The position numbers and the translations under genes are program-made. From a virus, in the IMG/VR virus record IMGVR_UViG_3300021400_000219, positions 121,970-139,573 of that record: a stretch of 17,604 nt of DNA. The stretch is one strand, 5' to 3'. Shown here piece after piece: positions 1 through 16,944 of this stretch; within the stretch, counting starts at the first letter, position 1, and each line of letters opens with the position of its first letter. Under the pieces are notes generated by a model. It was given only the letters and a program-made list of their open reading frames with translations, was not told where the DNA came from and did no database searches.

Positions 1-367
1 CTTCATCAAATACAGTCTGACTAGCGTTAGTGATAGCCTTGGAAATTTCAGAAGCAAAGTCAACTACATCATCAGTCAGAATATTATCCAGATATTCATC
101 AGTGACAAACTTTGCAGCGGGGTCATCATCAATAGCTCGCAGTGCCTTCATGCTTGCGAGCAGGAGCTTCTTCATCTTATCTCTATCACTGGCCGCATCC
201 TCTTCCTTCTTTCTCTTGGCTTCAGCCTCTTCCCTATGATACTGTGCCTTGGCAATAGCGATTGCATCTTCAACAGAATCTTCAATAGCAACTACAGCAT
301 AACCCTCTCTAAAAGCTTCAAGCAGAACAGGAGTAAGCTTTGCAGTCAATTCATATCTATCAATCAT
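1..367 (-). CDS. hypothetical protein, N-terminal part (gene runs off left edge)
   Basis: Open at the window edge, so absent from the ORF track. The reverse strand from ATG 367-365 reads MIDRYELTAKLTPVLLEAFREGYAVVAIEDSVEDAIAIAKAQYHREEAEAKRKKEED... with no stop to position 1. GAAAGGA SD upstream; own promoter at 402-430. Confidence 0.7.
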   Translation of the reverse strand, partial: MIDRYELTAKLTPVLLEAFREGYAVVAIEDSVEDAIAIAKAQYHREEAEAKRKKEEDAASDRDKMKKLLLASMKALRAIDDDPAAKFVTDEYLDNILTDDVVDFASEISKAITNASQTVFDE

Positions 368-401
368 TTATTTATCATATCCTTTCTCATTTTCTATATA
401 T

Positions 402-430
402 ATTATAACAAAAATTTTTTTGAAAATCAA
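402..430 (-). promoter_or_regulatory. sigma-A/70-type promoter, AT-rich subclass
   Basis: Minus strand TTGATT-N17-TATAAT with TGT extension; about 30 nt 5' of CDS <1..367. Confidence 0.6.
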
Positions 431-581
431 TAAAAACATTTAAAAAGGTAGTGAAATTGCCGAGCAAGATTTTCTCACGGAGAAACACTCATAAAGAGGT
501 AAAACGATATTAAATTGTAGGTTAAAAATGAAGCTTGGTAATCACCCCAGAGCAACCTCAGAAACGAGAAAATTTGAGGAT

Positions 582-610
582 TTGCTTTTTATAAAAATAT
601 ATAGTATAAT
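582..610 (+). promoter_or_regulatory. candidate plus-strand promoter
   Basis: TTGCTT-N17-TATAAT followed by ATAAATGGGGG. The other plus-strand promoters in the window show the same -10 then GGGG(G) context. Confidence 0.35.
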
Positions 611-710
611 ATAAATGGGGGTAGTATCTTTACCGAGCACGTGGATTAGTATAATATACTATTTAATTAAATAAAATAACGTATAAAGTTTAGTTAAAAA
701 GTTATTTAAT

Positions 711-739
711 TTGATTTATTTTATTAAATATTTTATAAT
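711..739 (+). promoter_or_regulatory. candidate plus-strand promoter
   Basis: TTGATT-N17-TATAAT followed by ATAATGGGGA. Confidence 0.35.
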
Positions 740-753
740 ATAATGGGGAAATA

Positions 754-778
754 TTATTATTTTTTTAAAAAATAATAA
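754..778. repeat. perfect A/T-only inverted repeat
   Basis: TTATTATTTTTT (754-765), then T, then AAAAAATAATAA (767-778); 12-bp arms. Confidence 0.85.
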
Positions 779-822
779 AAATATCTAAGTATTATTATAT
801 ATAATAATATCTTTTTTATTTT

Positions 823-851
823 ATTATACCAAAAATTTTTTTAAAAATCAA
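823..851 (-). promoter_or_regulatory. sigma-A/70-type promoter, AT-rich subclass
   Basis: Minus strand TTGATT-N17-TATAAT with TGG extension. No ORF follows; it reads into the AT-rich region. Confidence 0.5.
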
Positions 852-862
852 ATTTTTTTGTG

Positions 863-876
863 TTTCCGATCGGAAA
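863..876. repeat. perfect 14-bp palindrome TTTCCGATCGGAAA
   Basis: Read directly; lies between tandem promoters 894-922 and 823-851. Confidence 0.85.
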
Positions 877-893
877 AAATAGTTTTTTTTAAT

Positions 894-922
894 ATTATAA
901 CATATTTTTTTATGAAAATCAA
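894..922 (-). promoter_or_regulatory. sigma-A/70-type promoter, AT-rich subclass
   Basis: Minus strand TTGATT-N17-TATAAT with TGT extension. Confidence 0.5.
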
Positions 923-938
923 ATCGGTAATAGGTGCG

Positions 939-1173
939 CGTGTGAGCTAAAACCGTGCATATGGGGTGTTGTTAAACCGGTCGGATTTGTGTTAGAAAAA
1001 GTTGCATATGAGATTGTGTTTTCGGGATTCGCGGGGGCGGCGCTGAAAGCCACTCGTGTGAGCAAAATTTTTGCATATGGGGGTCTTGTTCGGGCGCGCG
1101 GAAACGCCGCCAGCACACGCCCGTGCGCCGGCGGTTCAAGGTGTGCCCTATTATGAGGGGTAAGCGTGTGAGC
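939..1173. repeat. iteron-like direct repeats in a GC-rich island
   Basis: CGTGTGAGC at 939-947, 1055-1063 and 1165-1173. TGCATATG(G/A)G at 956-963, 1003-1010 and 1072-1079. CTTTAAAG palindromes around 1196-1220. Confidence 0.6.
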
Positions 1174-1255: not shown

Positions 1256-1292
1256 TAAAAATTAAACCCCCAGGGGTTTGGACCCCCTGGGG
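1256..1292 (-). terminator. intrinsic terminator
   Basis: Minus strand CCCCAGGGG-N7-CCCCTGGGG (1268-1292) followed by GTTTAATTTTT; ends the mini-ORF transcript. Confidence 0.7.
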
Positions 1293-1337
1293 TAGGACCA
1301 TTTTTTGGCAGGTTGGTGTCCCTTCCACCTACGCTTG

Positions 1338-1361
1338 TTAAATAAATCCAGTAGGATACAT
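1338..1361 (-). CDS. 7-codon mini-ORF MYPTGFI (candidate micro-peptide or leader peptide)
   Basis: ATGTATCCTACTGGATTTATTTAA preceded by GGAGGTGATACC; tandem paralog of 1423..1446. Confidence 0.3.
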   Translation of the reverse strand: MYPTGFI

Positions 1362-1422
1362 GGTATCACCTCCATAGTATTTGAAACCACTCTTTGGCGG
1401 GCTGGCTTCTACTCCCATTCTA

Positions 1423-1446
1423 TTACGTAAATCCAGAGTAATACAT
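1423..1446 (-). CDS. 7-codon mini-ORF MYYSGFT (candidate micro-peptide or leader peptide)
   Basis: ATGTATTACTCTGGATTTACGTAA preceded by GAGGTGATTTAGAA. Confidence 0.3.
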   Translation of the reverse strand: MYYSGFT

Positions 1447-1592
1447 TTCTAAATCACCTCAACAATAATTTTTAATTCTTTAGTGTTTCGCTAGACGAAA
1501 CCTGTGGGGAACCTACGCATGGCCCTCTCTCCCTTCCTAGTCTATTCCGCAGGGGAGGTTTGGCGCCTTGCCCTCTCCCTTGGAACAATTAT

Positions 1593-3878: not shown

Positions 3879-4229
3879 CTACTTTCTTTTTTGCGTCAAT
3901 GTCAACTCAAACTTCTTTCCGTCAACCTCAAAAGCAATAACTCTTTCCTTGTTAGTGATTTCAAGGTTATCAACGGAGTTAGTCAGAAAGTTAGCAATTT
4001 CCGCAATCAAATGGCCTTTGGTTTCGTTGGGTTTTCTTTCCCTTTTGGTGAATTTGTAAGCCGTAGGCTTTCTGTCTGCCTGCCTTGCTTTCTTTTCCAC
4101 CTTTTTCTGTTCAGCCGTCAAGGGGAACGGGTCTGCGCCCTTGTCGATTTCTTTATCAGTGGCAATGATTTCCATCGCTTCCTGTTCAGAAATATCAAGG
4201 ACTTTCATCAGTCTTTCCTTTTGGTTCAT
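3879..4229 (-). CDS. hypothetical basic protein, paralog family 2
   Basis: True start MNQKERL at 4229 (AGGAAGGGG SD). 116 aa, paralogous to 9262..9615 over its full length (shared ...QADRK..AYKF.K.ERK.N..K...). Confidence 0.85.
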   Translation of the reverse strand: MNQKERLMKVLDISEQEAMEIIATDKEIDKGADPFPLTAEQKKVEKKARQADRKPTAYKFTKRERKPNETKGHLIAEIANFLTNSVDNLEITNKERVIAFEVDGKKFELTLTQKRK

Positions 4230-4398: not shown

Positions 4399-4761
4399 TC
4401 AAATGTCCATGGCCTTGAAGTAGGTGACACGCTTGTCAACATACTTGTCAACCATGCCGTTGAGATACAGGGTGCGGAGCAGACCGCTCACCCGCTGGCT
4501 GGTAGCATCTGCCAGCTCAGGCACCCCAGCGCAAATCTCAGAGATGCGGAAACCCTTGTCCGAATCATCCCGCAGGAAATCCAGAATCTTGGAGCGAATG
4601 GCATCGTTTTCCACCTGCTTGGCGGAAGGCTTGCGCTCAGCCGTGGACTTCTTGGCAAAGCCCTCGGCAATCTTTTCCAGCTTCTCCCGCAGGGCAGTTT
4701 CCTCAGCAGGGACGAAAGTCAGGGCCATCTCAATAGCAGTCTTATTAGTCAGCTTAGTCAT
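4399..4761 (-). CDS. winged-helix-like small DNA-binding protein, paralog family 1 (subtype b)
   Basis: True start MTKLTNK at 4761; the track ORF extends through the promoter. The C-terminus GFRISEICAGVPELADATSQRVSGLLRTLYLNGMVDKYVDKRVTYFKAM is nearly identical to that of 9645..10019. Confidence 0.9.
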   Translation of the reverse strand: MTKLTNKTAIEMALTFVPAEETALREKLEKIAEGFAKKSTAERKPSAKQVENDAIRSKILDFLRDDSDKGFRISEICAGVPELADATSQRVSGLLRTLYLNGMVDKYVDKRVTYFKAMDI

Positions 4762-6945: not shown

Positions 6946-6974
6946 GTTATTACCTCCCTCATTTCTGTAATTAT

Positions 6975-7002
6975 AGTATACCACAAATTATCCAAAAGTC
7001 AA
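6975..7002 (-). promoter_or_regulatory. sigma-A/70-type promoter, class B
   Basis: Minus TTGACT-N16-TATACT (TGG-extended); GTTACAATTTGGTTACA at 7003-7019. Confidence 0.65.
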
Positions 7003-7350: not shown

Positions 7351-7439
7351 TAGAAAATTGAAAAAAATTTAATGGAATTTATTCCCATTTACCCGGGCGC
7401 GTTAGCTGCTGCTAACTCTGGAAGAAAAAGGAAGGGGGA

Positions 7440-7805
7440 TTACTCCCCCTTCACCTGGAAGCGGCTGACCCGCTTCTCCACAACCTTCTCCACGGTTCCA
7501 GCTTCTACCAGCTGGCGCAGAAGGGCGGAAGCCTGCTGGCTGGAAGAGAGTTCCAGTTCGGCGGCTACTTCCTTCGCCTGCATAGGCTCGTGGTCAGTCA
7601 GCAGTTCAACGATGCGGGCCTTGATACCCTCGTTTTCAATCTGCTTCTTGGTGGGCTTGCGCTCGCCCTTGGACTTGGAAGCGTTCCGCTTCTCATAGCT
7701 GGCCTTGCAAGCAACCAGCTTTTCCATGGCTTCCTCGTTGAAGTCAGCGGGCAGGGAAGCAATAGCCATTTCCAGAGCCTTCACATAAGTCATCTTGTTA
7801 GTCAT
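7440..7805 (-). CDS. winged-helix-like small DNA-binding protein, paralog family 1 (subtype a)
   Basis: True start MTNKMTYVKAL at 7805. Collinear with 1714..2082 (EKLxACKASYxKRN..KGERKP.KKQ.ENEG..., ...ASALLRQ.VEAGTVEKV.EKR). The stop is in the GUAA loop of AAGGGGGA/TCCCCCTT. Confidence 0.9.
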   Translation of the reverse strand: MTNKMTYVKALEMAIASLPADFNEEAMEKLVACKASYEKRNASKSKGERKPTKKQIENEGIKARIVELLTDHEPMQAKEVAAELELSSSQQASALLRQLVEAGTVEKVVEKRVSRFQVKGE

Positions 7806-8117: not shown

Positions 8118-8495
8118 TTAACCCCGCTTGTACTCTTTAGTGCCCATAGAGTAAGGAATGTTGTACATCTCACAAGCTTCAATGGCGTACCCGATTGCCA
8201 GATTTGCCATTTCCTGGGCTTGCTCATACTTTCTGTTAGGGGTAATCTTGTAAAGAAAATGGTCATTCTGAACCTGTTCAAACAAGTAGGACATTTTCAG
8301 TCGTGCATGAGCTTCGACGGCAAGCCGCTCAGATTTGGTAGCTTTTGGCATTTTAATCCATGCTAAACACTGAAAATGTTCATTCTGTCTGATGCTGGAA
8401 AGACGCTGTGCTGGGGTGTCTTTGCCAGTTTCACCCAGCTTGAAAACACCATTCTTACGGCAGAAATAATTAAAACCAGTATAAAAGCAAGCCAT
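8118..8495 (-). CDS. T5orf172 / GIY-YIG-superfamily-like domain protein (125 aa)
   Basis: ORF track. GVFKLGETGKDTPAQRLSSI plus ERLAVEAHARLK fits the KIG-T...R...L / E..LH pattern of T5orf172 (MUG113) domains as I remember it; not verified by search. Confidence 0.8.
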   Translation of the reverse strand: MACFYTGFNYFCRKNGVFKLGETGKDTPAQRLSSIRQNEHFQCLAWIKMPKATKSERLAVEAHARLKMSYLFEQVQNDHFLYKITPNRKYEQAQEMANLAIGYAIEACEMYNIPYSMGTKEYKRG

Positions 8496-8588: not shown

Positions 8589-8649
8589 TACCTTTTTTCA
8601 AATTTTTTAATGGAATTTTTTTCCAGTTGCCCGGGCGCAGGAGTTAGCA

Positions 8650-8955
8650 TTAGCTAACTCCATTTTCTTCCAGACAAAATTCAAAACTCAAATCTTTTAC
8701 CACTTTTTGGGAAATGTATTCACGCACAAGGAAAAGCTCTAAATCTCTAGCCTGCTCCTCTACATAGCTACGGCGCAAATCGCGCACAGTGGAAAGATTT
8801 ACCATCGGGTATTCCATAGGATAACCACGCGCAACCACAATTACATTGTAAAGATTTTCCACGGGGTTCACCCTCATTCTCTTTTTCTTCTGGAATTTAT
8901 TGGTTTTATTGCGTTCAACTTTCGTTCTAAATTCTTTCATTTTTGCCTTGCTCAT
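8650..8955 (-). CDS. hypothetical protein (101 aa)
   Basis: Start MSKAKMKEF at 8955 overlaps the upstream stop as ATGA. The stop lies in the loop of the GGAGTTAGC-N4-GCTAACTCC hairpin (8640-8661). Confidence 0.8.
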   Translation of the reverse strand: MSKAKMKEFRTKVERNKTNKFQKKKRMRVNPVENLYNVIVVARGYPMEYPMVNLSTVRDLRRSYVEEQARDLELFLVREYISQKVVKDLSFEFCLEENGVS

Positions 8956-9261: not shown

Positions 9262-9615
9262 TCACTTTCTGGGGGCTGATAATACTACTTTGTATTTAGT
9301 ATTTTCAAACGTAAAAATAAACTCTCTTTCTACGTTGGTTATTTCTAACGCTTCCCCGCCATTTTCATTTATTGCGGTTGTGAGAATATCCATTATTGCG
9401 CGTTTTGCGTTGTTTGCTTTACGTTCCTTTTTGGGGAATTTATAAGCGGATACTTTGCGGTCAGCTTGACGCATTTTTTTTGCTACTTTCTGTTGTTCAG
9501 AATTTAACTCAAAAAGTTTTGCCCCGTGGTCTATTGCATCATCATCAGCTAATACTTGTTTAGCTTCTTCCTCTGTCAAATCTAATACCTGCATTAAATG
9601 TTCGATTCTCTCCAT
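9262..9615 (-). CDS. hypothetical basic protein, paralog family 2
   Basis: 117-aa ORF; ATG 9615. No promoter between it and 9645..10019, so it is operonic. Confidence 0.85.
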   Translation of the reverse strand: MERIEHLMQVLDLTEEEAKQVLADDDAIDHGAKLFELNSEQQKVAKKMRQADRKVSAYKFPKKERKANNAKRAIMDILTTAINENGGEALEITNVEREFIFTFENTKYKVVLSAPRK

Positions 9616-9644: not shown

Positions 9645-10019
9645 TTAAACCCCCTCACCCATGGCCTTGAAATAAGTAATGCGCTTATCTACGTACTTAT
9701 CTACCATTCCGTTCAGGTAGAGCGTCCGCAGAAGTCCGCTCACCCTCTGGGAAGTCGCATCGTTCAGAGCGGGAACACCTGCGCAGATTTCAGAGATACG
9801 GAAACCTCTGTCCACATCTTCCCGCAGGAAATCCAGAATTTCCGCACGGACGGCGTCGTTCTCTGCCTGCTTTGCGCTAGGCTTGCGGGGAGCGGTGTTC
9901 TTCTTAATGGCCTGTTCCTTCATCTTCTCCAGCTTTTCCACAACATCCGTCATGTCAGCGGGAACGTAGGACAGAGCAACTTCCAGAGCCTTAACAGTAG
10001 TCATCTTATTGGTAGCCAT
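9645..10019 (-). CDS. winged-helix-like small DNA-binding protein, paralog family 1 (subtype b)
   Basis: True start MATNKMTTVKAL at 10019. The stop is in the palindrome GGGGGTT-T-AACCCCC. Confidence 0.9.
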   Translation of the reverse strand: MATNKMTTVKALEVALSYVPADMTDVVEKLEKMKEQAIKKNTAPRKPSAKQAENDAVRAEILDFLREDVDRGFRISEICAGVPALNDATSQRVSGLLRTLYLNGMVDKYVDKRITYFKAMGEGV

Positions 10020-10891: not shown

Positions 10892-11341
10892 TTAAAGACC
10901 TCCCAGAACTTCAAGAATATTATTTACATCATAGGCATTTCCGCCTGCATTATTCCATTCAATTCTATTTCTTTCTTCATCATCAAACAGGATGCCGATT
11001 TCATTTACTACGGTACTTTTGGGGGTGCCATAGGAAACAATTTTCACATCATCAAAATGGACGCTTGCCAGATGTTTTTTTAACCACATCTTTTTTGCTT
11101 CTGTTACAACCTTGTTGTAATCGGGGTTATCTTCCTTAGAGAGCCAAGAGACAACACCAATTTTCCATCCAAGGGCCTGTAACTTGTTCAGCTTGTGGGC
11201 CAGCGCAGAAAGCCGAATCAGGGGTTTTGCGATTTCATAGGGAAGGGGATTTCTCTCAATTAGATAGGAGAGCCAATTTTCCACGCCATACAGATCGGCA
11301 ATAGTCCCATCCATGTCGAAATAAATAGCCTTGTTCATCAT
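10892..11341 (-). CDS. HAD-superfamily hydrolase, 5'(3')-deoxyribonucleotidase (NT5C)-like, paralog 1
   Basis: True start MMNKAIYFDMDGT at 11341 (or 11338). DMDGT is HAD motif I (DxDxT). Roughly 60% identical by eye to 15023..15487. Confidence 0.85.
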   Translation of the reverse strand: MMNKAIYFDMDGTIADLYGVENWLSYLIERNPLPYEIAKPLIRLSALAHKLNKLQALGWKIGVVSWLSKEDNPDYNKVVTEAKKMWLKKHLASVHFDDVKIVSYGTPKSTVVNEIGILFDDEERNRIEWNNAGGNAYDVNNILEVLGGL

Positions 11342-11441: not shown

Positions 11442-11460
11442 TTTGTGCAATTTGCACAAA
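11442..11460. promoter_or_regulatory. 19-bp perfect palindrome, operator candidate
   Basis: TTTGTGCAATTTGCACAAA, read directly. Confidence 0.6.
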
Positions 11461-12046: not shown

Positions 12047-12490
12047 TTACCCGATATGGGCGGCCAGCCAAGCCAGCATCTTTTTGCTTTCTTTAGCGCA
12101 CCGGATTTTCATCCCGCCGCCGTTCTTCTGGCTTTCCCGCTCGGTCTTGCAGAACTCGGTGCAGAAGGCGGTGAACTCGTCCCGGTTCATCATATAGACC
12201 TGATAATCGGCGGTAACGTAGGCCCAGAGGTTGCTGTGGGTGCGCTCCATATAGAGGGCCCAGATTTCATCATAAGTTTCCCGGCCTTCGCACAGGGTGG
12301 CGCTCATAAGGGTGAAGGCAGAAGCCTTGACGGAGATGAGCATTTCACCAAGCTCGATATCAGAGCCTTTGTCATATGCACCGCTATCATGGGTGGTGCG
12401 GTCGATGCCCATATAGTGGCACAGATCGTGCTCACGGGCAATGCCCTTATTAGTAGCGGGGGAAACGTGGTCAATCTTGAAGGTCTTCAT
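12047..12490 (-). CDS. hypothetical protein (147 aa), noticeably GC-richer than its neighbours
   Basis: True start MKTFKIDHV at 12490 after AAGGAAAGGGAG. GSDIELGEMLISVKAS weakly recalls a PD-(D/E)xK nuclease core; that part is low confidence. Confidence 0.85.
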   Translation of the reverse strand: MKTFKIDHVSPATNKGIAREHDLCHYMGIDRTTHDSGAYDKGSDIELGEMLISVKASAFTLMSATLCEGRETYDEIWALYMERTHSNLWAYVTADYQVYMMNRDEFTAFCTEFCKTERESQKNGGGMKIRCAKESKKMLAWLAAHIG

Positions 12491-12521: not shown

Positions 12522-12550
12522 AGTATAGCACCATTCCCCGGGATAGTCAA
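12522..12550 (-). promoter_or_regulatory. sigma-A/70-type promoter, class C
   Basis: Minus TTGACT-N17-TATACT (TGC-extended); CCCCGGG lies in the spacer. Confidence 0.7.
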
Positions 12551-12614
12551 TACAAAATCGCAAATTTCCCCTTGTGCAAATTATACAAATGTTGGAGCGG
12601 ATTTTTGGGGGCTG

Positions 12615-12631
12615 TTGTGCAAGTTGCACAA
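12615..12631. promoter_or_regulatory. 17-bp perfect palindrome, operator candidate
   Basis: TTGTGCAA-G-TTGCACAA, read directly. Confidence 0.6.
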
Positions 12632-12669
12632 TTAGTGTAACCTGGGTCACATTAAAAGTAACAAAAGAG

Positions 12670-12697
12670 TTACAATCTCTAACAATCAATTACAATC
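12670..12697. repeat. three 10-bp-phased TWACAATC repeats (iteron-like)
   Basis: TTACAATC 12670-12677, TAACAATC 12680-12687, TTACAATC 12690-12697. The core is shared with the class B GGTTACAAT motif. Confidence 0.7.
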
Positions 12698-12727
12698 TTT
12701 TTTTTACTTTCAAAACACTTTTTTTAA

Positions 12728-12910
12728 GTTAGCAGTTAGCAAAGGGTAATGCTAGTTAGCACAAGCTAATTGTTGTTAGTTCGAACTAACTCCGGTTAGC
12801 AGGGACTAACTGGAGTTAGCCTAGGCTAACTTTAGCACACTAAAGCTGTAGCGATTTAGCGAACTAAAGTGCGCCGGACCTGGCAATTTGAACAATTAGC
12901 GGCTGCTAAC
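12728..12910. repeat. tandem array of 8 TTAG(C)-loop-(G)CTAA mini-palindromes
   Basis: Hairpins or palindromes at 12737-12754, 12755-12769, 12775-12790 (GTTAGTTCGAACTAAC), 12795-12810, 12814-12831 (AGTTAGCCTAGGCTAACT), 12830-12845, 12855-12868 and 12896-12909. Confidence 0.85.
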
Positions 12911-12913
12911 TTT

Positions 12914-13167
12914 GTGCATTTTGACGAGGTTTCGGGATTCGTCAAGTTGCACAAAAATGTAACCAAATTGTAACCAAAATTTGTGCAATTTGACGGTGGC
13001 GCGAACTCGGCTGCCAACGACTGCGCTGGGCCACAGTGCACTCGTTGGCGGCCGGTTCGTCATTTTGCACAAATGCGTGCGTGCGAGGGGCCTTAACTTT
13101 ATGCATTATGACGAAAAAAAATTTTTGTGCAAAATGACGAATCAAATCCTGATTCGTCAAAATGCAC
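12914..13167. repeat. array of GTGCA-N3-TGACG motifs in nested inverted pairs
   Basis: Forward copies at 12914-12927, 12983-12996, 13101-13114 and 13127-13140. Reverse copies at 12939-12952, 13057-13070 and 13154-13167. Further copies at 4294-4307 and 10322-10335. Confidence 0.8.
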
Positions 13168-13192
13168 AAAAAAAGAGGCATTGCCCGGCCTC
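13166..13192 (-). terminator. intrinsic terminator
   Basis: Minus GAGGC-CGGGCAAT-GCCTC followed by TTTTTTT. Confidence 0.6.
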
Positions 13193-13463
13193 ATCGGGGG
13201 GAAGCTTGACGCCCTTCCCTGGCGGTGGTGTCCACTTTCGGGGACACGCCCGGCTCCGTTTGCTAGCCGCAGGAGCGTCGCGGCGCTGGGGTCGTTCCCT
13301 TGCCCCTTGGGGAACTTGATGGCCTCCATTTCTATCCCGCGGCCTTGGGGGCGGCCTAGCTACTTTGTGGGGAGTATCGCCCACGTTTCGCCGACGCGGC
13401 TGGGATTTTGGTGTCATCGCGCATCCCGTGCGCTCAAGAGGGACAAGTCAACCTCTTTTCTAT
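13166..13463 (-). ncRNA. candidate ~300-nt GC-rich structured non-coding RNA
   Basis: Runs from promoter 13470-13498 to the intrinsic terminator GAGGC-N8-GCCTC plus T7 (13168-13192). No SD-preceded ORF. Many local hairpins, e.g. GUGUCC-CCGAAAGU-GGACAC and GGGAAG..CUUCCC. Confidence 0.4.
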
Positions 13464-13469
13464 GGTCTT

Positions 13470-13498
13470 ATTATAGCACCCGCAAGGGGTTTTGTCAA
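13470..13498 (-). promoter_or_regulatory. sigma-A/70-type promoter driving the non-coding transcript
   Basis: Minus TTGACA-N17-TATAAT (TGC-extended); an A13-containing UP-like tract upstream (plus-strand T run 13509-13521). Confidence 0.7.
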
Positions 13499-13540
13499 GG
13501 GTTTTTTCTTTTTTTTTTTTTGTTCCCGGAGGGCCGGGGC

Positions 13541-13699
13541 TTAGTAGCCCCAGCCGATGGAGGTTACCCTCCATCCCTCCTCCCGCAGTGCGGGATAAAG
13601 GGCGGCGAAACTCGCCAACCCGTGTTCCCACACACGGGACTCACAGGCCCACAGGCCAGTGAAGAGGTTCCGATGGAACCGGATGTATTCAATTTTCAT
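13541..13699 (-). CDS. hypothetical protein (52 aa)
   Basis: True start MKIEYIRFHRNLF at 13699 after AAAGGAGG. The stop is in the GGGGCT-N4-AGCCCC hairpin. Confidence 0.6.
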   Translation of the reverse strand: MKIEYIRFHRNLFTGLWACESRVWEHGLASFAALYPALREEGWRVTSIGWGY

Positions 13700-13729
13700 G
13701 GAAGTGACCTCCTTTGTTTTACTGTAATC

Positions 13730-13758
13730 ATTATAGCAGACCCGCCCGGGTTTGTCAA
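13730..13758 (-). promoter_or_regulatory. sigma-A/70-type promoter (gene-proximal tandem)
   Basis: Minus TTGACA-N17-TATAAT (TGC-extended); CCCGGG lies within the spacer. Confidence 0.7.
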
Positions 13759-13924
13759 CCCTTTTTTTCATTTTTTTTATTTTTTTTTGGTTCCCCATAC
13801 CCCTCCGGGGAACCACTGGCCGGCTATTTTTTACCTCCCGCCCTAGGGGGTGGCCCTTGGTACTTTGTGGGGTATCTTGCCCACGTTTCCCAGAGGGAGG
13901 GCCCGGAGGGTTTCCCCTCCTGAC
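13759..13924 (-). ncRNA. candidate short GC-rich RNA between tandem promoters
   Basis: Starts after promoter 13931-13959. Contains GGAGGG-GAAA-CCCTCC and GGTTCCCC..GGGGAACC hairpins and a ~50-nt block homologous to 13341-13392. Confidence 0.3.
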
Positions 13925-13930
13925 ATGATT

Positions 13931-14007: not shown

Positions 14008-14037
14008 TTGACAGCCGAGCCTATTTTGTGGTATAAT
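14008..14037 (+). promoter_or_regulatory. plus-strand promoter facing a GC-rich island
   Basis: TTGACA-N18-TATAAT (TGG-extended); the upstream CATTTTTACTCTTGACA is conserved with 16916-16944. Confidence 0.6.
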
Positions 14038-15022: not shown

Positions 15023-15487
15023 TTACTTCCCTCTCGCCCATGTCAGAACGTCCATAATCATTTCAGGATTGAAGGCCCAACCTTCCATTTCTTCCCACTC
15101 AATCACATTGTTTTCTTCATCGTCAAACAGAATCCCATTTTTCACGGTGGGCACTGTGCTTTTGGGCGTCCCATAGGGAACAATGTTGATTTCATCAAAG
15201 TGAACGCTTGCAAGGTGTTTCTTGAGCCAATTCTTTTTGGCTTCAATAACCTTTTCGTCAAATTCCTTGTTGCTATTCTTAGCTAACCAACTAACTACCC
15301 CGATTGTCCATCCCTTTTTCTGAAGGTTATTCAACCGACGGGCAAGGGCGTTCATGTTTACCAGAGGCTTAGCAACTTCATAGGGGAAGGGATTGTTTTC
15401 CAGTAGATAACCCAGCCAGTTTTCTACGCCGTAGAAGTTGGCGATTGTTCCATCCATGTCAAAGTAGATTGCCCGATTGATTTTCAT
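15023..15487 (-). CDS. HAD-superfamily hydrolase, 5'(3')-deoxyribonucleotidase (NT5C)-like, paralog 2
   Basis: 154-aa ORF; AAAGGAG SD; contains YFDMDGTIA. The stop is in the GUAA loop of AGAGGGAA/TTCCCTCT (15015-15034). Confidence 0.9.
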   Translation of the reverse strand: MKINRAIYFDMDGTIANFYGVENWLGYLLENNPFPYEVAKPLVNMNALARRLNNLQKKGWTIGVVSWLAKNSNKEFDEKVIEAKKNWLKKHLASVHFDEINIVPYGTPKSTVPTVKNGILFDDEENNVIEWEEMEGWAFNPEMIMDVLTWARGK

Positions 15488-15590: not shown

Positions 15591-15619
15591 TTGACAAATT
15601 GAAAAAACTGTGATACAAT
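15591..15619 (+). promoter_or_regulatory. plus-strand promoter followed by a T19 tract
   Basis: TTGACA-N17-TACAAT (TGA-extended), then AAAGGGGGAATTA and T19. Confidence 0.6.
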
Positions 15620-16915: not shown

Positions 16916-16944
16916 TTGACATTCGCTGTAAATTGTGGTAAAAT
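16916..16944 (+). promoter_or_regulatory. plus-strand promoter facing a GC-rich island
   Basis: TTGACA-N17-TAAAAT (TGG-extended) followed by AAAATGGGGAG. Confidence 0.6.

Follow-up and report, generated by a model that had tools for sequence, protein, structure and literature searches.

Repeat-dense non-coding control regions are of a known kind, which includes the iss region of phage T5, iteron origins and incompatibility loci, dispersed phage operators and phased centromeres. Iteron origins and copy-control loci (P1 oriR/incA, RK2 oriV, pSC101) are arrays of 17-22-bp sites, direct and inverted, accompanied by an A/T-rich tract, a GC-rich segment, DnaA boxes and a downstream gene whose promoter overlaps inverted sites. 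The C1 operators of P1 form a dispersed regulon of phage-repressor operators. Tandem repeats of ~20 bp bound by winged-helix or ribbon-helix-helix proteins are typical of plasmid centromeres, and the tandem sites of pSK41/R1 parC-ParR, TubR-tubC and phi29 p6 offer ~10-12 bp per monomer or ~20 bp per dimer, on which small dimeric proteins co-operatively form a filament; the complex can regulate promoters as well as serve another DNA transaction. In T4, small open reading frames (ORFs) are flanked by promoter-early stem-loop (PeSL) cassettes, which are single units between genes. By anatomy, the closest described object to the locus reported here is iss R2/R3 in the T5 pre-early region (Davison, bioRxiv 10.1101/866236). 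This locus, here called the hub, occupies positions 12551-13172 of a 17,604-nucleotide stretch of viral DNA (the window: positions 121,970 to 139,573 of IMG/VR record IMGVR_UViG_3300021400_000219); it holds ~25 repeat sites of at least three kinds and no gene. To judge from its recurrence in distant relatives beside a gene for a small restriction-enzyme-like protein, the hub is a real cis-acting DNA element. We read it tentatively, with a probability of roughly 0.4, as a nucleoprotein platform for phage early regulators, which would control early transcription including that of the nuclease-like gene. New in this element are the combination of several site families, the phased array and the shared travel with a small nuclease-fold gene; none of the described elements is related to it in sequence.

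Three site classes make up most of the list below: class B is TGTAACC; class C is the 17-bp site TTGTGCA-N3-TGCACAA, one half of which is often TGACGAA; and class D is a TTAG/CTAA half-site. The parts of the hub and of its two borders are the following:

12047..12490, minus strand: gene of a 147-residue protein with a PD-(D/E)xK fold.
12522..12550, minus strand: promoter of that downstream gene, TTGACT-17-TATACT with a TG extension.
12572..12588: class C variant TTGTGCAAATTATACAA, 21 nt upstream of the -35 element of the 12550 promoter.
12615..12631: perfect 17-bp class C palindrome TTGTGCAAGTTGCACAA.
12636..12651: imperfect palindrome TGTAACC-TG-GGTCACA with class B-type half-sites.
12670..12697, plus strand: three direct TWACAATC repeats at 10-bp spacing, which also score as a weak plus-strand promoter-like site.
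12697..12727: A/T-rich tract of 31 bp, 84% A+T.
12728..12910: class D array of 16 half-sites, (G/T/A)TTAG(C/T) or (A/G)CTAA(C/A/T), in alternating orientation.
12911..12955: inverted class C pair TTTGTGCATTTTGACGA / TCGTCAAGTTGCACAAA with an 11-nt spacer; DNA hairpin of -12.6 kcal/mol, z-score -4.5.
12958..12975, plus strand: class B direct repeat TGTAACCAAATTGTAACC, oriented opposite to the copies that abut the -35 elements of minus-strand promoters.
12976..13076: composite palindrome of 101 nt; DNA fold of -37.2 kcal/mol, z-score -7.3.
13098..13114, plus strand: degenerate class C site TTTATGCATTATGACGA.
13122..13172: inverted class C pair with 23-nt arms and a 5-nt spacer; -19.5 kcal/mol, z-score -9.3.
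13175..13192, minus strand: intrinsic terminator of the upstream untranslated transcript, which shields the hub from the consensus promoter at 13498-13470.

All the repeat systems that a preliminary description of this DNA had listed were recovered, none more than 1-2 nt from where it had been placed: the perfect palindrome, the TWACAATC triplet in exact 10-bp phase (12670, 12680, 12690), the TTAG array, the inverted copy of the class B motif, and GTGCA-N3-TGACG at 12914, 12983 and 13127 on the plus strand and at 12940, 13058 and 13155 on the minus strand, with a degenerate copy at 13102. The imperfect palindrome exists as well, one base away from its first placing and with one further base at its centre. 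The absence of genes holds for the hub, where no ORF of at least 30 amino acids overlapping 12551-13165 on either strand has a Shine-Dalgarno-like sequence; the gene-free span had been drawn as far as 13540, and of this 13175-13462 is not hub but a separate untranslated transcription unit of the minus strand. The long plus-strand ORFs over 12981-13846, which lack a Shine-Dalgarno sequence, were rejected as genes and are artefacts of GC-rich non-coding DNA.

The hub contains nine class C sites (TTGTGCA-N3-TG(C/A)C). Six of the eight copies of TTGTGCANNNTGACG in the window lie in it, together with the degenerate seventh hub copy, whereas dinucleotide shuffles gave 0.0; the palindromic form TGTGCA-N3-TGCACA occurs twice (0 expected) and GTTAGC 31 times in the window (6.1 expected). 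The class D array includes five 16-bp palindromes at 20-bp spacing, and 11 of its 16 half-sites keep one 10-bp register (P ~3e-7). Since the counts far exceed the shuffle expectation and the register is so improbable, the repeats are not due to chance. The TTGTGCAAGTTGCACAA form has a single other copy in the window, at 11443-11459, adjoining the 11418 promoter. The three large composite palindromes fold, as DNA, far more stably than shuffled sequences; in the 101-nt palindrome, class C sites form the outer arms (12979-12995 / 13057-13073) and enclose a GC-rich inverted repeat (13008-13028 / 13034-13054). Eight T's trail the 13122..13172 pair on the minus strand, so that this pair could double as a back-up terminator. 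A promoter search across the hub returned nothing scoring above 9/12, the strong promoters standing solely at its edges. Rfam 15 gave no match at the gathering score over the whole window, its E-value mode gave over the hub only a chance-level microRNA model on a hairpin, and a tRNA/tmRNA scan found no credible match over the hub.

The window is the early-gene region of a ~170-kb gut phage that is TAG-recoded in its later genes, as its gene layout, the phage-like matches, the contigs and the in-frame TAG codons indicate. Nearly all its credible genes lie on the minus strand; they are small, and each stands behind its own sigma-70 promoter, close to consensus and extended by TG. The window has 87 promoter-like sites where 32 are expected, and ten match perfectly (12/12). 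Family matches among the window proteins are few and all phage-like. The DnaQ-like exonuclease encoded in the window (PHROG 20187, E-value 3e-47) is distantly related to Enterococcus phage proteins and to 'Phage Phass-1' (phAss-1, in GenBank 'Caudoviricetes code 15 clade', which carries suppressor tRNAs), and a query with it against bacterial genomes found no relative. By exact-protein look-up, metagenome contigs of 67-174 kb were recognised as this phage. In the A/T-rich flank next to the window, TAG codons stand in frame within the source gene calls, for instance in contig L129 at 1288-1767 and 1749-2192, where full-length proteins are still called; TAG is evidently read as a sense codon outside the early region, in later genes. 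The host is probably a Firmicute, judging from the extended -10 promoters and the distant exonuclease matches in Enterococcus phages.

Lining up all strong minus-strand promoters of the window revealed a common inter-gene cassette, which runs from the stop codon (often in a hairpin loop) through a terminator, sometimes a class D palindrome, and CGCCCGGGC to one site at the -35 element. The site abutting the -35 element is class A (CTGGAAAAnATTTCCA), class B (TGTAACCAAATTGTAAC) or class C (TTGTGCA-N3-TGCACAA or the TGACGAA variant), and the class D palindrome, GTTAGC-N4-GCTAAC, has seven single copies. In strain contig L134, TGCACAA replaces one TGACGAA half-site, so the asymmetric and symmetric class C forms are variants of one site type. 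The hub is therefore a promoter-free concentration of classes B, C and D, which occur singly upstream of early promoters windowwide, at more than 10 promoters. Because the same site types stand singly there, the hub can be read as the main loading, nucleating or holding site for early-gene regulators. The earlier idea of an operator cluster or master regulatory region is partly borne out, as it fits this anatomy and the autonomous conservation in relatives described below; the accompanying claim that every operator-like motif is concentrated in the hub went too far, since class A (TGGAA-N5-TTCCA, six sites) and CCCGGG are absent from the hub body, the CCCGGG at 12537 lying in a promoter spacer.

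CCCGGG, mostly as GCCCGGGC, occurs 22 times against ~4 expected (e.g. at 1225, 1665, 2304, 5701, 8630, 11465 and 14997) and, by eye, is placed between genes, at a fixed spot ahead of the operator of the next promoter or within a promoter spacer. Many genes end with the stop codon inside a hairpin loop, such as ggagttagcTAAtgctaactcc and ggtgacTAAgtcacc (8640-8661, ~6960-6975, 7431-7452). Spo0A was tried as a binder, TGACGAA fitting the 0A box TGNCGAA, and was rejected: canonical TGTCGAA occurs once (1.6 expected) and TGNCGAA at expectation. Look-alikes of the Rex, CRP/FNR, CIRCE, parS and Noc sites were dropped as well, their spacing or half-sites presumably misfitting. Three plus-strand consensus promoters (14008-14037, 15591-15619, 16916-16944) are directed against the genes; a GTTAGC-N4-GCTAAC palindrome lies 34-37 nt past the -10 element of all three, with a GCGCGC-rich stretch before it in two, and their probable products are short RNAs antisense to the upstream genes at their 3' ends. 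An antisense promoter and palindrome in this arrangement are also present in contigs L229-L231.

The preliminary description had proposed conservation in related genomes as a check, and this comparison supports an element in its own right: part order is kept and flanking genes differ. Among strains of the same phage, contigs L129, L131 and L137 are practically identical to the window, and L128 and L130 (98% identity) have their hub differences confined to the loop of one inverted pair. The mosaics L132, L134 and L135 carry an unrelated GC hairpin at the position of the inner GC hairpin, and L135 has an array of GTTAC/GTAAC half-sites in place of the class D array. The core 12892-13006, which consists of a class C pair, the class B repeat and one further class C site, is kept in all three and in every other strain variant. 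Module swapping of this sort among near-identical strains is characteristic of regulatory DNA. In distant relatives (exonuclease identity 54-58%), the parts of a hub follow one another as they do here: a GC palindrome with class C sites on either side, followed by a TTAG/CTAA array, an A/T-rich tract and a promoter. One such hub (L126:4066-5397) lies downstream of an SPFH-like gene, another is found at L122/L127:1-540, and phAss-1 shows a partial likeness, with a TTGTGCAA cluster and a GC palindrome near its exonuclease gene. As the flanking genes vary between phages, the hub is an autonomous element and not one gene's private upstream region. The hub-region DNA showed no similarity to any of 50,697 phage records, and a literature search on the motifs and the phAss-1 group found no description of such regions. 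The second gene-free gap in phAss-1, 1.4 kb long, contains eight or more A-tracts in 10-11-bp phase (L138:11883-12003), and intrinsically bent DNA is predicted there.

The same phage has a second hub, 1.6 kb of non-coding DNA at L129:2193-3780, located 1.1-2.7 kb past the right end of the window and 5.5 kb from the first, at the head of the early cluster, beside late-type genes of the opposite orientation (YonG_N). Its parts are a CCGGGGCCCGG palindrome surrounded by class C sites, a class D array, and CTTTAGC-N3-4-TAAAGTAnTAAAGTAT in five or six copies; the two hubs have their motif families in common and no long identical stretch.

Immediately downstream of the hub, the minus-strand gene at 12047-12490 encodes a 147-amino-acid protein with a restriction-endonuclease-like PD-(D/E)xK fold. 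Its family comprises at least 158 proteins; E20, D44 and S53-V-K55 are invariant, and the 120 members listed are at least 56% identical and have no Pfam match. A query with the protein against the IMG/VR and phage records gave no match. Homologues in three further lineages, four in all, likewise lie behind non-coding DNA built of the same parts, as a hub or mini-hub. Upstream of the homologue in L228, a class D array and a GC hairpin are combined with class B repeats and three class C sites. In L229/L230, and likewise in L231, a GC hairpin and an antisense consensus promoter accompany a class D palindrome, and class C sites lie at 0-11 nt from the -35 element. Class C sites near the -35 element of the nuclease-like gene are thus retained in the four lineages. 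A second family of 147-residue proteins is encoded within ~250 bp of arrays in five IMG/VR loci. In a profile comparison its C-terminal core (E...D...GD-X8-QxK) aligns with the N-terminal core of the window family, which is suggestive of a circular permutation between the two (E-value 8e-4, probability 25%). The link between array and small nuclease-fold gene is recurrent, not universal.

A scan of IMG/VR for two CTAAC-N4-GTTAG palindromes 6-36 nt apart yielded 88 loci, mostly on contigs of 30-150 kb, with arrays of 3 to ~40 units. The phased array type of the hub is present at no fewer than 38 IMG/VR loci. The distances between successive palindromes are quantised: 20 bp (56 cases), 40 bp (35), 60 bp (11) and 80 bp (7), besides 21 bp (7) and 22 bp (6). 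In L122, 14 of 17 half-sites share one 10-bp register over 250 bp, and in L126 two registers hold 11 and 7 of 20 half-sites. A covariation check found modest pairing beyond the 5-nt core and G-T pairs not clearly above A-C; together with the quantised spacing and the register, this favours the binding of proteins to a single face of the duplex rather than RNA stems. The largest array, L207:4000-4850, has ~40 palindromes in ~900 bp with a consensus promoter ahead of it, and is followed by four perfect tandem DnaA boxes TGTGGATAA (4865, 4877, 4889, 4901), a promoter and a 147-residue nuclease-like gene. Perfect DnaA boxes lie within 800 bp of only this one among the 38 related arrays taken for that search. 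Among the 55 arrays taken for promoters, one contains a near-consensus promoter (at most one mismatch per hexamer), 27 have a strong promoter facing the array within 250 bp, and about half have one pointing away. The L207 array matched none of 72,556 plasmids and one of the 50,697 phage records, an unannotated faecal contig. A strictly 20-bp-phased palindrome array appears to be undescribed, no description of it being found in the searchable literature.

As candidate hub-binding regulators we consider four paralogues of ~124 amino acids encoded on the minus strand (1714-2082, 4399-4761, 7440-7805, 9645-10019). They are modelled as a helical N-terminal part plus a winged helix (predicted local distance difference test, pLDDT, 87), their closest folds and profile matches are MecI/BlaI, MepR/MarR and ArsR, and the family numbers over 1200 proteins, of which many are encoded on contigs of 100-200 kb. 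Each of the four genes has two tandem consensus promoters ~100-150 nt apart upstream, with a short GC-rich leader between them. Within each of two paralogue pairs the recognition helices are near-identical, so that at most two or three DNA specificities are expected.

Protein binding at the hub, the identity of the binders and the effect on transcription are inferred. In the proposed mechanism the hub would assemble sequence-specific DNA-binding proteins, with the winged-helix paralogues as candidates, and dimers would co-operate in binding, both along the phased array and between the two members of each inverted site pair. The complex would set the timing and level of the adjacent promoter of the restriction-endonuclease-like, potentially toxic gene, and it might buffer the same regulators at the single sites of other early promoters, or bridge to them by looping; the outcome would be a coordinated switch of the early region. 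The platform is the reading that accounts for most of the observations, and we hold it with less than even confidence. Several points weigh against it. Class C and D sites are more numerous in the two hubs than at all promoters combined, a distribution more typical of an origin, an incompatibility locus or a centromere than of an operator set. The ~40-unit L207 array far exceeds the needs of promoter control and has its four perfect DnaA boxes beside it, and the strong promoters firing into 27 of 55 arrays leave room for a role that may lie at the RNA level. A one-to-one pairing of the four winged-helix paralogues with the four motif classes was also discarded, given the two pairs with shared recognition helices.

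The main alternative to a platform is an iteron-type replication origin, in which the phased repeats would bind an initiator, possibly with host DnaA, the A/T tract would melt, and the GC palindrome and inverted sites would flank the opening; the second hub would then serve as another origin or control copy number, as P1 incA does. The preliminary description had named an origin with iterons, and phased repeats, an A/T tract and DnaA-like 9-mers are present, but neither a Rep neighbour nor a skew switch accompanies them; we consider an origin possible, if doubtful. At least three regularly spaced repeats exist (nine class C sites, 16 phased class D half-sites), the GC-rich element is adjacent to the phased arrays and the 31-bp tract, the element is autonomous and kept while its neighbours change, each genome has two hubs, and most sites lie in hubs and not at promoters. 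The relaxed DnaA box TTWTNCACA is matched by the 9-mers TTTTGCACA (13063) and TGTGCAAAA (13126), both embedded in class C sites; the reading of class C sites as DnaA boxes is kept only as a weak lead. L207, with its four perfect boxes between the 900-bp array and the next promoter, speaks for an origin, yet it is the sole case among the 38 arrays, and the product of the conserved gene next to the hub folds like a restriction endonuclease and not like a Rep protein; no initiator-like (Rep) Pfam match is recorded in the surrounding 20 kb. The cumulative GC skew falls on both sides of the hub in the window and shows no switch, and in the complete phAss-1 genome the hub-like region lies away from the skew extremum, although this is a weak test because the skew follows the gene strand. 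The swapping of whole arrays among strains is awkward for a single-initiator origin, and the occurrence of hub motifs at more than 10 promoters also counts against it. A role of the hub and the 147-residue protein as one functional module, across a large group of uncultured TAG-recoded gut phages, seems to us unlikely: a site-specific nuclease, or a DNA binder derived from one, would act on the phased array or GC palindrome of its own genome, making a break or nick that starts replication or recombination, or holding and releasing the DNA as proposed for T5 iss with A1/A2, and the single sites close to promoters would link this step with early transcription.

Three other explanations appear decidedly improbable, each to a similar degree. 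The repeats might be transcribed, from the plus strand or by read-through, into a tandem-hairpin non-coding RNA that acts as a protein sponge or as part of an antisense system. Some relatives clearly transcribe their arrays: consensus promoters read into the array in L207 and L118, inward promoters lie within 250 bp at 27 of 55 arrays, and the antisense consensus promoter of L229-L231 reads into the GC hairpin and class D palindrome, as the plus-strand promoters at 14008, 15591 and 16916 read towards a palindrome 34-37 nt after the -10 element. At its two non-Watson-Crick positions the 13008-13054 hairpin has G-T when read from the plus strand but would have A-C when read from the minus strand, and the swap of the GC hairpin among strains keeps structure and not sequence. 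In the window, however, no promoter above 9/12 reads into the hub and the terminator shields its upstream side, Rfam is empty at the gathering score, class D stems reach only 5-7 bp and the array folds only modestly more stably than shuffles (z-score -3.65); flank complementarity is likewise modest, with no clear G-T excess, and the 40/60/80-bp quantisation and 10-bp register are predicted by binding to one helical face and not required by RNA hairpins. Another DNA-level cis site, such as a partition centromere, a T5-like injection-stop or a packaging site or terminus, possibly cut or held by the nuclease-like protein, would agree with that conserved site-specific-nuclease-like neighbour, with the NT5C-like nucleotidase genes in the same early region and, for a centromere, with tandem phased sites at 20-bp palindrome spacing and 10-bp register. 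Contigs L128, L129 and L130, from separate samples and two assembly projects, end within 2 bp of each other 29.87 kb past the YonG-like gene, probably at a fixed physical genome end (as seen in assemblies, not read starts). The hubs lie ~32 kb (second) and ~40 kb (first) from this reproducible end, with late-type genes on the opposite strand in between, unlike a first-step-transfer segment; a pac/cos or T5-like injection-stop role is thus unlikely, and the pac-type site once suggested for this DNA is disfavoured, the neighbours being early genes with no terminase gene near. Nor did the 20 kb hold a recorded terminase, ParA/ParM/TubZ or ParB Pfam match, or the array find a match in the 72,556 plasmids. 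Finally, the hub might have no function of its own and consist of cassette parts (terminator hairpins, operators, decayed promoters) left over after gene loss and shuffling in a hyperplastic early region. Every hub motif is an ordinary inter-gene cassette part, strains differ by whole-module replacement, and the region is rich in paralogues and mosaic joints; but part order is kept at 54-58% exonuclease identity and in L228, the register is strict across 170-250 bp, the spacing is quantised in dozens of unrelated contigs, the core 12892-13006 persists in every strain variant, and CCCGGG, the commonest cassette part, is missing from the hub.

Other features of the early region were noted alongside. 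Its G+C content is 40-57%, and that of the DNA on both sides 22-37% (window 250-1000; L129:1000-2200). Two paralogue pairs on the minus strand, the NT5C-like nucleotidases (10892-11341 and 15023-15487) and a ~117-residue family without assigned function (3879-4229 and 9262-9615), indicate segmental duplication inside it. A 125-residue protein (8118-8495, minus strand) has, by eye, a T5orf172/GIY-YIG-type-like motif (FKLGETGKD..RL), with no Pfam or PHROG match at the thresholds used. The gene-free segment 939-1173 contains TGCATATG three times (956, 1003, 1072) and CGTGTGAGC three times (939, 1055, 1165), and beyond it lies very A/T-rich DNA with promoters of the TTGATT-N17-TATAAT type. Several minus-strand transcripts appear to be untranslated. 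The GC-rich one of ~290 nt at 13175-13462 runs from the perfect consensus promoter 13498-13470 to the terminator 13192-13175; it folds no more stably than shuffles (z-score -0.35) and has a weak Rfam match to RAGATH-28 at 13385-13457 (22 bits against a gathering score of 45, E-value 0.34), and strain L132 keeps its 3' half with the 5' half swapped. A shorter paralogue of this RNA lies at ~13800-13925 (minus strand), GAAACGTGGGC..CCCACAAAGTA being common to both. A further transcript of ~330 nt (~1268-1590, minus strand) extends from the promoter 1621-1593 to the terminator 1292-1268 and has no Shine-Dalgarno-preceded ORF; short leader-like RNAs similar to it ('tgttccaagggagaggg...') follow the promoters at 2261, 6582 and 10253.

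Large phages place their origins, switches and signals for DNA handling in gene-free, repeat-dense control regions. None of these is known from uncultured gut phages that read TAG as sense, to which the hub adds a concrete, recognisable cis-element. It comes with a searchable signature (CTAAC-N4-GTTAG palindromes spaced by multiples of 20 bp, together with a GC-rich palindrome and sites of the form TTGTGCA-N3-TGACGAA) and with conserved protein partners, namely the small nuclease-fold protein and the large winged-helix family. Should it prove to be the switch or the origin of the early region, it would offer a handle for studying and engineering phages not yet grown.

Compared with the known systems, the hub resembles the phased centromeres in its 20-bp palindrome spacing and 10-bp half-site register, but the half-site sequences are unrelated, no partition nucleoside triphosphatase gene lies near it (Pfam, 20 kb) and the 72,556 plasmids contain no relative. 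The one likeness is to the KorB operator TTTAGCSGCTAAA, which has TTAGC in common with class D but a different spacing. Like the iteron loci, the hub combines site arrays, an A/T tract, a GC segment, DnaA-like boxes and a gene with its promoter immediately downstream; unlike them, it has a nuclease-like product and not a winged-helix Rep encoded downstream, at least four motif families rather than one, sites spread over many promoters, and no skew switch. The layout of the window (gene, stem-loop, strong early promoter, next gene) and its mosaic shuffling between strains recall the T4 PeSLs, which are not promoter-free arrays of binding-type sites as the hub is. In SPbeta the SPBRE motif occurs at many promoter regions and is bound by MrpR (PMC10516654), and classes A to D are similarly short motifs in many intergenic promoter regions of a large phage; this likeness is one of layout. 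SPBRE consists of single promoter sites with no promoter-free cluster described (PMC10516654), and MrpR has a tyrosine-recombinase-like fold; no protein of that kind was seen in the window. From T5 iss the hub differs in having no sequence similarity to it, in its place, remote from the inferred genome end and in no obvious terminal repeat, where a T5-type region sits a few percent from the end that enters first, inside or at the border of a long terminal repeat, in its weak DnaA-box match, in motifs that double as promoter-upstream sites, and in its host, probably a Firmicute where that of T5 is E. coli. The DnaA-box pairs of T5 iss are 3 bp apart, as are the halves of class C, which match TTWTNCACA at 7-9 of 9 positions with conserved bases that are not DnaA-specific; both regions carry DnaA-box-like 9-mers, and for both the function is a proposal. 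In each, a large gene-free stretch stands among small early genes with very strong sigma-70 promoters, part order is kept among relatives while the neighbouring genes are not, and a second related repeat region lies a few kb away.

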